NCBI RefSeq assembly: GCF_044324875.1 | Contig: NZ_CP172185.1 | Source: Escherichia coli | GTDB lineage: Bacteria; Pseudomonadota; Gammaproteobacteria; Enterobacterales; Enterobacteriaceae | Length of the DNA: 64,000 nt | Direction: 5' to 3' (one strand) | Part shown: positions 35,062 to 59,783 of the stretch, in pieces | Layout: every line of letters begins with the position of its first letter | Numbering within the stretch: the stretch's first letter is position 1 | Made by a program: the position numbers and the translations under genes | Notes under the pieces: generated by a model | What the model was told of the DNA's origin: nothing | Databases searched by the model: none | The model's input: the letters and a program-made list of their open reading frames with translations, nothing else

Positions 35062-35146
35062 TTGCCGGATGCGGCGTGAACGCCTTATCCGACCTGTGGA
35101 AACAGTGATATTTCCAGGTCGGATAATCAGCATCGCATCAGGCACA
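35062..35146. repeat. REP/BIME repeat pair between convergent purK and ybcF
   Basis: GCCGGATGCGGCGTGAACGCCTTATCCGACCT plus an inverted REP-like copy about 25 bp downstream. Confidence 0.6.
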
Positions 35147-56279: not shown

Positions 56280-56330
56280 CCCACAAAAATGCTTTTCCGT
56301 TCCTCTTTAATAAATTGTGCAACTGGTTAA

Positions 56331-56999
56331 CTACCAGTTGCCATAGGGATATTTTTTATCTTTGATAAACTCAAGTACATATTCATCGTCTCCAAGAGAA
56401 AAATCATGCCGGGAAATTCCTTTACACATTTCCATTTTTTCACCTGAAACCGTTTCTATCAGAATCTGCTTATCCGTCAGGCGAATATTGGGCTTGTCAG
56501 GTTTCTCCAGCCATACGCGTACTTTTCCTTCTGGAGCCAGACCGATTAACAGATACCGCAGATAATACTTTTCACTGCCACCGCCTGGTGGTGAATAAGG
56601 TGTGAGCATCAATTTCCAGACGTCTCCCGCCAGCGTTATCCAGGTTTCATACACTTTTTTATCAATCACTGAATCCCAGCAGAAATGGATAGACATAGGG
56701 GGATTTTTGGCTTTATTGAATGATAACACCCCAACCCGAAGATTATCTCTCCACTGACCAATAGTAGTGGAACTCGGAGCGGTAGCATCCAGCGTTCTGA
56801 ACTGATAATAGATACCATCAGTGTCCAATAGTTCTACATAGGTAACTTGTGCTGGTAGCGCATTAGGGTAGAAAAAAAGGAAATACCATTCATCATAGGG
56901 TGCAAGCAGTGATATTTTTTCTTTCGCTGCTGTCTGGACTGATCCGGCTATCATTAACGCAATGGTTAATCTATAAATTATTTTAGCTGTTATTTTCAT
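56331..56999 (-). CDS. Putative periplasmic immunity protein, paralog 2 (orphan immunity candidate)
   Basis: 222 aa with Sec signal peptide (MKITAKIIYRLTIALMIAGSVQTAAKEK); C-terminal half nearly identical to the upstream paralog; sits 3' of the Tle1-like effector. Confidence 0.65.
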   Translation of the reverse strand: MKITAKIIYRLTIALMIAGSVQTAAKEKISLLAPYDEWYFLFFYPNALPAQVTYVELLDTDGIYYQFRTLDATAPSSTTIGQWRDNLRVGVLSFNKAKNPPMSIHFCWDSVIDKKVYETWITLAGDVWKLMLTPYSPPGGGSEKYYLRYLLIGLAPEGKVRVWLEKPDKPNIRLTDKQILIETVSGEKMEMCKGISRHDFSLGDDEYVLEFIKDKKYPYGNW

Positions 57000-57005
57000 T
57001 GTTAC

Positions 57006-57665
57006 TTACCAGTTACCATAGGGATATTTTTTATCTTTGATAAACTCAAGAACATATTCATCGTCTCCAAGAGAAAAATCATGCCGGGAAATTCCTTTAC
57101 ACATTTCCATTTTTTCACCTGAAACCGTTTCTATCAGAATCTGCTTATCCGTCAGGCGAATATTGGGTTTGTCACGTTTATTAAGCCATACCCGTACTTT
57201 TCCTTCCGGAGCCAGCCCGATTAACAGAAACCGCAGATAATACTTTTCACTGCCACCGCATGGTGGTGAATAAGGTGTGAGCATCAATTTCCAGACGTCT
57301 CCCGCCAGTGTTATCCAGGTTTCATACACTTTTTTATCAATCACTGAATCCCAGCAAAAATGGATAGACATTGGTGGGTTTTTGGCTTTATTAAAAACTG
57401 ACGACATCCCTGATACTTTCTCGCTCCATTGTCCAACACTTCCTGGACTGGCATTGGTACTGGCCAGCGTTCTGAACTGATAATAGATGCCATCGGTATC
57501 TAATAATTCCACATAGGTAACTTGTGCTGGTAGGGAATCAGGGTAGAAAAAATTGAAATACCACTCATCATAGGGTGCAAGCAACAATATTTTTTCTTTC
57601 GCTGCTGCGTTAAAGTTAAGAACCATAGACGTAATAACAAACAGTAATTTTATATTAAATTCCAT
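57006..57665 (-). CDS. Putative periplasmic immunity protein, paralog 1 (likely cognate to the adjacent Tle1-like effector)
   Basis: Start at internal ATG 57665 (MEFNIKLLFVITSMVLNFNAAAKEK, signal peptide); this start overlaps the effector stop as ATGGAATTTAA; about 219 aa. Confidence 0.7.
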   Translation of the reverse strand: MEFNIKLLFVITSMVLNFNAAAKEKILLLAPYDEWYFNFFYPDSLPAQVTYVELLDTDGIYYQFRTLASTNASPGSVGQWSEKVSGMSSVFNKAKNPPMSIHFCWDSVIDKKVYETWITLAGDVWKLMLTPYSPPCGGSEKYYLRFLLIGLAPEGKVRVWLNKRDKPNIRLTDKQILIETVSGEKMEMCKGISRHDFSLGDDEYVLEFIKDKKYPYGNW

Positions 57666-59658
57666 TTTGTTTATTCCCTTGCATATCGTATATAGTTCTG
57701 GTCCAATTTTCATCCGGCCGATTAACAAAACTAAACGTCTTAAACGCTGATACTTCAGCAGACACCTTATTTTTTAATCGATAATCGACGGTATTCCAGT
57801 TGGAAGAACAGTGTAAATATTTCCCAATGGTTTTAAGCTCATCATCAGAAAAAGGCATCGGCGCTGTACACAAGAGAACGGCTTTACCCTGAGAAATTGC
57901 TTTTTCACATATTACCTTTAAATGACTGGGAACTTTTAATTCCTTATCAGCAACAGAAATGGCATCAAATACTACCCCTGCCTCTTTAGCGACTTCATAC
58001 ATTACTCTTAACGCAATCTTTGACCAGTCATTGGTGATCGTTCTGCGAAATGTCACCGCTGCAGCGACCCGTTTTCTCACATTACCTAAGTGGTCAGGCG
58101 ACGCTATTTCATCAATATTGGATTCAATTTTTAGGACACCAGAAGGCAGAATCGGAGCCAGCGTCGAATAGCGCCACAATAACTCTGCCTGCTGTACTGC
58201 TTTTTGGTAAGCGCTTGTCGCTTCCATCGGCACATTTCCCAGTACCGTTTCAATCGCCGGGCGACTTAAAAACAGGTACTCATCTTCCTGTGGGTCATAA
58301 CCGCCACCAATATCAGCATGTGATCCAGGGAAACTTAATTCTGGCCAGCTTTCCTTTATGCTGTTGAGGCAAAAGTTATAGCGACATTCGTTCATTGCTG
58401 TGAGCTGGAATACATGTTTGGCCACACCTGGCGGTAACTTCACTTTTACCGGAAAGTTATTACCATCATGAGGGTCAAAACCATCCATCAGCCCTCCGAT
58501 GGCTGCAACTGTGTCAAAAATACCTAAAAATTGCACTTCCCCGGAAGGTTTACCTAAATATTCAACTGACTGAAATGCCGTCGCAATGGTTTTAATCAGT
58601 ACGGGATCACGTTCAAATACGCGATTAGTAAAGTGCCGTGCGGCTGCCGCCCCACGACTAAAGCCAAATACGTCAAACTGTAGACGCTTAATTACTAGTT
58701 TAGCATCCTTTAAATCAACAATAATCTCTGCCAGTGTCTCACGAAGCAGTGATATCGCACGGTCAGTTTTGGCAATTACCCCAGTATCATTATTTCCTAG
58801 CCCCATTCCTACCAGAGAGTCTGCTTTATTATTTTCAGTGCCAATACCTTCAATATATATTTTTTCCTGAATATTAAATACATCATCATCTAAAACTAAT
58901 TGCCGATGATACAACTCATTCAACCAATGAATATTCGTATAGTAATTCAAATAGCTCTGTACTCCGGATCCCGTTTTACCCTGCTTGCTCATACATTGTT
59001 TATTAAACGAGGCCAAATCCTGGACATCCAGACCATAGGTTTCTGGTTGGCAAAAACTCATACGTAAATTCGTATTGGTTAAATTGTTTCCTGTGCCATC
59101 AAAGAATACGCCAATGGTGAGGATAATTTCTCGTTCAGGCGGTATTTCTGGTTTTTCCTCAACAGGTAAGAGCGTCGGTGGGAAAAGGCGATTATAATTT
59201 TCAGGTGTGAGTAAATAACTAAATTCTGTATTGGCTGTAAGATGCTTACAGTAGATATATTTGTAGTGTATTGTTATATATTGATAGTCGAGTTCATTTT
59301 CTTTTATTATAATCTGATTCTGAGTTAACGTTGCACCGCGGACTTCAATATAATAATAACTTTCCCATTTCCCATATTTATTAATACGATAAAAATCAAA
59401 CTCAAAACGGCATCGTTCGTTATTATTAATGCAATTCATCAGCAGCGGTGAGCTTTTATCGAGAATTTTACAAAATTGTATCGCTTGATGATTAATGCCA
59501 AATCCTGTATTACTCACTCCTCCCTGAAAACTAAAAACAAATATTTCATCTTCATGTCCCTGTTGATACCGATTCCCGACAGAGGCTTGCGTCCCGCATC
59601 CTGCAGAAATATTACCTTGTTGCTCCCCTGTAATGCGTAAATATATAATGTCACCCAT
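57655..59658 (-). CDS. Hcp-domain / DUF2235 (Tle1-like phospholipase) fusion protein, a putative T6SS Hcp-linked effector, 667 aa
   Basis: N-terminal ~155 aa match the Hcp/TssD family (IYLRITGEQQGNISAGCGTQASVGNRYQQGHEDEIFV..., KSSPLL motif). A Pro-rich linker (PPTLLPVEEKPEIPPERE) follows, then DUF2235 hallmarks: FFDGTGNN, nucleophile elbow GFSRGA, FDTVAA and HADIGGGY. Confidence 0.85.
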   Translation of the reverse strand: MGDIIYLRITGEQQGNISAGCGTQASVGNRYQQGHEDEIFVFSFQGGVSNTGFGINHQAIQFCKILDKSSPLLMNCINNNERCRFEFDFYRINKYGKWESYYYIEVRGATLTQNQIIIKENELDYQYITIHYKYIYCKHLTANTEFSYLLTPENYNRLFPPTLLPVEEKPEIPPEREIILTIGVFFDGTGNNLTNTNLRMSFCQPETYGLDVQDLASFNKQCMSKQGKTGSGVQSYLNYYTNIHWLNELYHRQLVLDDDVFNIQEKIYIEGIGTENNKADSLVGMGLGNNDTGVIAKTDRAISLLRETLAEIIVDLKDAKLVIKRLQFDVFGFSRGAAAARHFTNRVFERDPVLIKTIATAFQSVEYLGKPSGEVQFLGIFDTVAAIGGLMDGFDPHDGNNFPVKVKLPPGVAKHVFQLTAMNECRYNFCLNSIKESWPELSFPGSHADIGGGYDPQEDEYLFLSRPAIETVLGNVPMEATSAYQKAVQQAELLWRYSTLAPILPSGVLKIESNIDEIASPDHLGNVRKRVAAAVTFRRTITNDWSKIALRVMYEVAKEAGVVFDAISVADKELKVPSHLKVICEKAISQGKAVLLCTAPMPFSDDELKTIGKYLHCSSNWNTVDYRLKNKVSAEVSAFKTFSFVNRPDENWTRTIYDMQGNKQNGI

Positions 59659-59783
59659 ATGATTACACCCATTCCATAGATTTTAATTATATAATATAAA
59701 CTTAATAAACATCTCATTTGGCAATGTATATTAATTATATGTTTGGGCATAACAATTTTTTAATTACGTGATGCACTAATAAT

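Follow-up and report, generated by a model that had tools for sequence, protein, structure and literature searches.

Introduction

DUF2931 is the family of the immunity proteins Tli1 of enteroaggregative Escherichia coli (EAEC), Tli1 of Vibrio cholerae and Tli1/Tli2 of Aeromonas hydrophila. In EAEC, Tli1 is a lipoprotein and the immunity partner of Tle1. A. hydrophila has two tandem DUF2931 genes, both of which are needed for protection, and of two V. cholerae DUF2931 proteins that are 80% identical, one protects. For E. coli, two reviews (PMC6730261, PMC6099711) give Hcp-ET2/ETi2 as a Tle1/Tli1 pair. Here we examined a 64,000-nucleotide stretch of an E. coli chromosome (contig NZ_CP172185.1, RefSeq assembly GCF_044324875.1; hereafter the window), in which two tandem DUF2931 genes at positions 56331-57665 lie directly downstream of a gene for an Hcp-Tle1 fusion effector. 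This region is very probably the immunity half of a horizontally acquired type VI secretion system (T6SS) effector-immunity operon of the Hcp-Tle1/Tli1 type.

A sequence-only reading of the window had described the two genes as a cognate plus an orphan immunity paralog, with a hypervariable central patch that sets effector specificity. We compared the array with related loci (cited below by L numbers) in E. coli, Salmonella and other genera. The comparison points to another loop, near the C-terminus, as the candidate for matching the linked effector.

Results

Three co-oriented minus-strand genes lie between mnmH and ybbP, encoding a 667-aa effector, a 219-aa open reading frame (ORF), here called proximal, and a 222-aa ORF, here called distal (Table 1). 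The distal protein matched DUF2931 (PF11153) over residues 28-201 (E = 5.2e-26), its sole Pfam family match, and the RefSeq names at the locus are 'Hcp family T6SS effector' for the effector and 'DUF2931 family protein' for both paralogs. The immunity family that the sequence-only reading had supposed was thus recovered by database search, DUF2931 being the Tli1 family. Public databases contain exact copies of all three proteins, each on 176-312 contigs (proximal protein, 176; distal protein, 312), and the ATG of the proximal gene is also the RefSeq start in the near-identical genome AF40.

By inspection, both N-termini are Sec-like, with an n-, h- and c-region ending AA/KEK, and neither paralog has a Cys in its first 36 residues, hence no lipobox, as the sequence-only reading had described. 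The VgrG-linked relatives of Enterobacter and L027 have the lipobox Cys, which the Hcp-linked E. coli and Salmonella proteins do not. The Hcp-linked proteins are therefore predicted to be soluble and periplasmic, unlike the EAEC Tli1 lipoprotein. AlphaFold2 modelled the distal protein (pLDDT 79.5, pTM 0.78) as a beta-sandwich after an N-terminal helix, residues 3-24 forming a low-confidence helix. No significant match was found to a solved structure related to the distal protein. By sequence, both ORFs are thus members of DUF2931, the Tli1 family, and their signal peptides look to be of the Sec type and not those of lipoproteins. It is hardly credible that they are beta-sandwich proteins of the periplasm with no role in immunity, such as adhesin-like or fimbria-like ones: the homology searches led neither to a fimbrial nor to a lipoprotein family, no fimbrial Pfam domain or lipobox Cys was found in the paralogs, and DUF2931 was the sole Pfam family matched. 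In addition, a DUF2931 gene was always directly downstream of, and co-oriented with, a Tle1 effector gene in the five genera sampled (E. coli, Salmonella, Enterobacter, Pseudocitrobacter and the contig L005).

The adjacent lipase effector that the sequence-only reading had assumed is the Hcp-Tle1 fusion. Its residues 6-138 match Pfam T6SS_HCP, its residues 369-460 match PF09994, and it scores 125 bits against TIGR03344 (cut-off 58.9). Residues 173-661 align with EAEC Tle1 (PDB 6SJL_D) over 489 residues (E = 1.4e-127). G332-F-S334-R-G336, D382 and H447/D449 are invariant across the effector alignment. The protein thus combines an intact Hcp domain with an intact Tle1 catalytic motif, and it has the makeup that defines Hcp-ET2, with an N-terminal Hcp/TssD domain and a C-terminal DUF2235 domain with GxSxG in one polypeptide. 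Frameshifted or stop-interrupted effector genes beside at least one intact DUF2931 gene were observed in four Salmonella loci (L002, L004, L085, L086) and two E. coli loci (L080, L081); in these strains, immunity outlasts the loss of the toxin.

The paralogs are identical at 176 of 222 residues (79%, BLASTP), or at about 87% without the signal peptides, and at about 83% of nucleotides (555/666, summed over regions). The differences are unevenly spread: identity is 6/26 in the signal region, 40/44 in residues 27-70, 7/25 in the central patch (71-95) and 123/127 in residues 96-222. One 25-residue window holds 18 of the 26 mature-region differences (hypergeometric p ~1e-14), a clustering reached by 0 of 200,000 permutations. 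The sequence-only reading had located both ORFs and their clustered differences correctly, its two quoted strings being exactly the central patches, and it had rightly noted the near-identical C-terminal part. Its overall identity of 85-90% was slightly high for the whole protein and fits the mature part.

Within the sampled E. coli arrays, the immunity genes are mosaics of four modules: the signal peptide, the central patch, a small middle patch (residues ~159-168) and loop 2 (residues 193-210). The central patch occurs as types A, B and C, and loop 2 as type X (KGISRHDFSLGDDEYVLE) or Y (NGRSAYKHGYSYPESTKN); the combinations seen were B+X, B+Y, A+X, A+Y and C+Y. In the AlphaFold2 model, the central patch and loop 2 are both coil on the beta-sandwich. 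The effector gene is a mosaic as well, with two segments, E1 (residues 252-266) and E2 (residues 566-611), present as sharply different alleles in otherwise 97-100% identical E. coli and Salmonella genes. The E2 block types are common to several genera, and E. coli genomes carry either T1 (n = 560), the type in the window, or T2 (n = 13).

Loop 2 and E2 vary together. Between two Salmonella bongori loci (L020, L023), DNA identity is 97-100% over the effector gene and gene 1, the first immunity gene, except in two separate blocks, which are E2 and loop 2. The prediction drawn from this pair, that loci with an X'-type gene first carry a long, T1-like E2, held in two S. enterica loci (L083, L084), and all five Salmonella loci with Y' first have the short E2 type. 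Twenty-seven effector columns split X from Y perfectly, and all of them fall within residues 567-606. The pairing was repeated in Pseudocitrobacter (L024) and in the VgrG-linked Tle1 of Enterobacter (L090 versus L008 and L088). These alignments make loop 2 the best candidate for the part of the immunity protein that would match the linked effector, via effector residues 566-611. Among E. coli genomes, 534 have loop type X and 570 have Y.

In the window, a T1 effector is followed by two genes that both carry loop X. Because the same X loop, fitting the T1 effector, is present in both paralogs, both are predicted to protect, and both are probably competent against the adjacent effector. With loop 2 identical in the two, a split into a cognate and an orphan gene is not indicated here; the paralogs differ at the central patch, for which no co-variation with the effector was found. 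A cognate-plus-orphan model could apply to other E. coli arrays, in which X and Y genes occur together. In the Enterobacter T6SS clusters L008, L088 and L090, tandem DUF2931 lipoprotein genes accompany the VgrG-linked Tle1 and their loop types reassort; the single gene of L088 is a chimera from recombination between two genes seen in L008.

Several observations weigh against reading the locus as a T6SS effector-immunity operon in which loop 2 is matched to E2. No T6SS core gene lies within the 64-kb window. At least 26 of the 560 E. coli genomes with a T1 effector are without any X gene; single-gene arrays of type Y stand beside an intact T1 effector in L018, L082 and L087, and in L019 the sole intact immunity gene is of Y type and the T1 effector is intact. 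About 25 loci, which are phylogenetically non-independent, underlie the co-variation, and physical linkage, E2 and loop 2 lying within about 900 nt of each other, could contribute to it. Given the exceptions, the loop 2/E2 pairing, as seen in these alignments, is a lead and not a law.

The central patch behaves differently. Within the family, no other internal stretch varies as much, and the synonymous divergence (dS) of the patch between the paralogs is 1.3, which is saturated, versus 0.16-0.47 in the flanks. The saturation indicates an old divergence and not a recent diversification. Positive selection on the patch was considered and rejected, as the ratio of nonsynonymous to synonymous divergence (dN/dS) was about 0.5 (0.53) with saturated dS and no excess signal. 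The patch types are also shared with Salmonella, where A' matches E. coli A at 14/24 residues and B' matches B at 14/24, whereas A and B match at 6/24 in either genus. Patch and scaffold yield opposite trees. For the patch, dN is 0.71-0.72 when different types from one genome are compared and 0.26-0.29 when one type is compared across genera. In the scaffold, genes of the same genome differ by a dN of 0.03 and genes of different genera by 0.15-0.17. Both types are present in S. bongori, S. enterica subsp. salamae and S. enterica subsp. enterica. The central patch is thus, as far as these comparisons reach, a trans-genus dimorphism on a scaffold that evolves in concert, which is not the hypervariability that the sequence-only reading had seen in it.

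Under the cognate-plus-orphan explanation, one paralog would serve the adjacent effector, the other would act against a foreign Tle1 allele, and the central 24-residue patch would determine specificity. The variability and surface position of the patch favour this explanation, as do the retention of its types across genera, which implies selection, the differing protection by the 80% identical V. cholerae pair, and the almost constant presence of type B in gene 1 of E. coli. Nevertheless, the patch does not track the linked effector. The identical effector WP_000502301.1 was found with arrays that have or lack type B, namely B/A/C, B/C, A/A/C (L015) and B. The homologous Salmonella island (kdpA...phr) often has one immunity gene, A' or B', and the effectors beside these genes share 94-97% identity. 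No variable block of those effectors matches the difference, and A' and B' loci are told apart by just two scattered effector columns. Effector alignments showed no co-variation of the central patch with E1 or E2, and none was seen between E1 and any immunity patch. The evidence from these loci therefore speaks against the central patch as the determinant of specificity for the linked effector, and we consider the cognate-plus-orphan explanation rather unlikely for the window.

The island was found in 573 of 5,426 complete E. coli genomes (~10%), always at the ybbP-mnmH site. Sampled E. coli arrays hold one to four DUF2931 genes, the sampled genomes of sequence type 131 (ST131) mostly having three, and only one complete E. 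coli genome matches the array of the window at ≥99% identity. The conserved parts do recombine, as the sequence-only reading had supposed: across strains, copy number varies, two-gene units are duplicated and single genes are chimeric, which is what an orphan array would display. An identical gene is present twice in L016, and chimeras are evident in L087 and in gene 1 of L015. In all arrays examined, gene 1 begins with MEFNIK and later genes with MKITAK. Gene 1 has the MEFNIK signal because its start lies inside the 3' end of the effector gene, so the signal-peptide difference, which had been counted among the differences between the paralogs, is a matter of array position and not of evolved paralog divergence.

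The distribution of copy number also bears on joint action of the paralogs, for example as a hetero-oligomer in which both are needed, as for A. hydrophila Tli1/Tli2. Besides that precedent, the recurrence of pairs of A-type and B-type genes in E. coli, S. bongori and S. enterica subsp. arizonae would fit such a partnership. However, natural single-gene arrays with intact effectors and either patch type exist in E. coli (L018, L082, L087) and Salmonella (L003, L006, L020) and weaken the idea of an obligate heteromer, and one Tli1 suffices in EAEC and V. cholerae. Joint action is accordingly improbable.

The last array gene is given as 207 aa, starting MIAGS, in RefSeq/PGAP annotations of L010 (3006-3629), L012 and L014-L017, which is a start-codon miscall. 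A class of 207-aa, signal-less third genes was rejected, since the ORF reaches an upstream ATG that gives 222 aa and a full MKIIAK signal. A contig scan with Hcp N-terminal peptide patterns picked up plain Hcp genes for the most part and added just four full Hcp-Tle1 loci, and a distant DNA search aimed at the EAEC-type tle1-tli1 locus returned only more copies of the same island.

The island is flanked on the left by hyi-gcl-allR-allA-allS-mnmH and on the right by ybbP-ybbA-tesA, and its GC content is 35-47% versus 50-61% in the flanks, in keeping with a foreign origin. The order of elements is a promoter-like site, the effector gene, immunity genes 1 and 2, and a terminator-like hairpin (Table 1). 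The hairpin spans the last codons and stop of the distal gene at the junction with the convergent mnmH; it lies 40-62 nt from the mnmH stop and might serve both convergent transcripts. The 300-nt direct repeat reads as the homogenised 3' part of the duplication unit. In K-12, the ybbP-mnmH slot holds rhsD-ybbC and Rhs fragments (window 56280-59826 versus K-12 locus L092, 4832-12132), and the ybbP-mnmH (selU) slot seems to be a hot spot for polymorphic-toxin cargo. Relative to AF40, the closest complete genome, the window is without a lambdoid prophage that AF40 has beside tRNA-Arg and without an IS1397 copy near purK (window ~35091-35126). Window positions 1-21764, which encode ybdK, pheP, cusCFBA, cusRS and nfrBA, have no similarity to the AF40 stretch compared.

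Table 1 Features of the Hcp-Tle1/DUF2931 locus in the window
Feature	Coordinates	Strand	Remarks
Proximal DUF2931/Tli1-family immunity gene, 219 aa	57006..57665	-	ATG overlaps effector stop by 11 nt
Distal DUF2931/Tli1-family immunity gene, 222 aa	56331..56999	-	Starts 6 nt after proximal stop
Proximal central patch, type B, ASTNASPGSVGQWSEKVSGMSSVF	57393..57464	-	
Distal central patch, type A, DATAPSSTTIGQWRDNLRVGVLSF	56718..56789	-	
Proximal C-terminal loop 2, type X, KGISRHDFSLGDDEYVLE	57045..57098	-	
Distal C-terminal loop 2, type X	56370..56423	-	Protein sequence identical to proximal copy
Hcp-Tle1 fusion effector gene, 667 aa	57655..59658	-	Hcp tube domain ~1-149; Tle1 phospholipase domain ~173-661
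Effector variable segment E1, residues 252-266, RQLVLDDDVFNIQEK	58861..58905	-	Two forms within E. coli, from effector alignments
Effector variable segment E2, residues 566-611, AISVADKELKVPSHL...	57826..57963	-	T1/long type; co-varies with immunity loop 2
Putative promoter-like site (TTAAAA, 18-nt spacer, TATAAT)	59734..59763	-	~75 nt 5' of effector ATG; consensus scan only, 10/12 matches
Terminator-like hairpin	56319..56341	-	9-bp stem, 5 G-C pairs, weak T tail; consensus scan
300-nt direct repeat	56326..56625	none	95% identical to 57001-57300; 675-nt spacing

Discussion

By analogy with characterised relatives, the two paralogs would be exported to the periplasm, where they would bind the Tle1 phospholipase domain that sister cells inject and neutralise it. 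Comparative data suggest that the pair arose when a 675-nt unit was duplicated in tandem. Gene conversion and unequal crossing-over would keep reshuffling the array, so that the scaffold becomes homogenised within a species while two or more surface loops persist in distinct allelic types of old age. The paralogs of the window would then differ, beyond their position-dependent signals, only in the older central loop (A versus B), a possible second contact that could change the breadth of protection against foreign Tle1 variants.

Taken further, these observations raise a more general idea, which we offer tentatively and regard as possible but doubtful: enterobacterial DUF2931 proteins could form a combinatorial loop-cassette system, in which a genus-homogenised scaffold carries two or three surface loops of freely reassorting, ancient trans-genus types (A/B/C; X/Y/Z). 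The C-terminal loop would be matched to the swappable effector segment 566-611, and the central loop would be kept polymorphic by selection unrelated to the linked effector; it may, for example, broaden protection against foreign Tle1 variants. If such a system exists, it could become possible to infer Tle1-Tli1 specificity from sequence and to reprogram it.

The module itself is routine, being a known effector-immunity pair that is present in about a tenth of complete E. coli genomes, sampled ST131 genomes included, and is already annotated automatically. The lead on loop 2 and E2 is the modest new element. As a by-product, the comparison yields a testable map of Tle1/Tli1 (DUF2931) specificity, effector residues 566-611 versus immunity residues 193-210; to our knowledge, no complex structure of a Tle1/DUF2931 Tli1 pair exists. 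The map bears on forecasting which strains kill or resist one another via the Hcp-Tle1 lipase. The comparison also illustrates that a conspicuous variable patch can turn out to be a balanced dimorphism of long standing instead of the determinant for the adjacent toxin.

Among the closest known systems is Hcp-ET2/ETi2 of E. coli. Like the locus in the window, it joins an Hcp domain to a DUF2235/Tle1 phospholipase, with Tli1-type immunity encoded downstream, at a site apart from the main T6SS cluster. The pair reportedly goes back to E. coli strain PE321 (Ma et al. 2017, Virulence 8:1189), and the published evidence for its T6SS-dependent delivery and antibacterial activity concerns a strain other than that of the window. 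A mosaic and allelic analysis like the present one was not found in the literature searched, in which Hcp-ET2 is covered by reviews. The EAEC Tle1-Tli1 pair of the Sci-1 T6SS shares a homologous Tle1 domain and a DUF2931 immunity protein, and a second, truncated tli1-like gene is present there. It differs in that Tle1 is VgrG-loaded cargo and not an Hcp fusion, and in that Tli1 is anchored as an outer-membrane lipoprotein, whereas the proteins of the window, having no lipobox Cys, are predicted to stay soluble in the periplasm.

V. cholerae Tle1Vc with Tli1tox-/Tli1tox+ and A. hydrophila Tle1AH with Tli1/Tli2 likewise have DUF2931 proteins with signal peptides beside Tle1, with relatives that are about 80% identical (in tandem in A. 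hydrophila) and protection that differs or is shared. Those effectors, however, are VgrG/DUF4123-dependent cargo from other genera, and the specificity residues are unmapped there. The orphan arrays of Rhs, contact-dependent growth inhibition (CDI) and V. cholerae T6SS auxiliary clusters are similar in having tandem immunity genes 3' of the toxin, variable copy number and recombination between repeats. In those arrays whole immunity genes differ, often accompanied by toxin-tip fragments, whereas arrays like that of the window have a homogenised scaffold with two or three short, reassorting loop cassettes.
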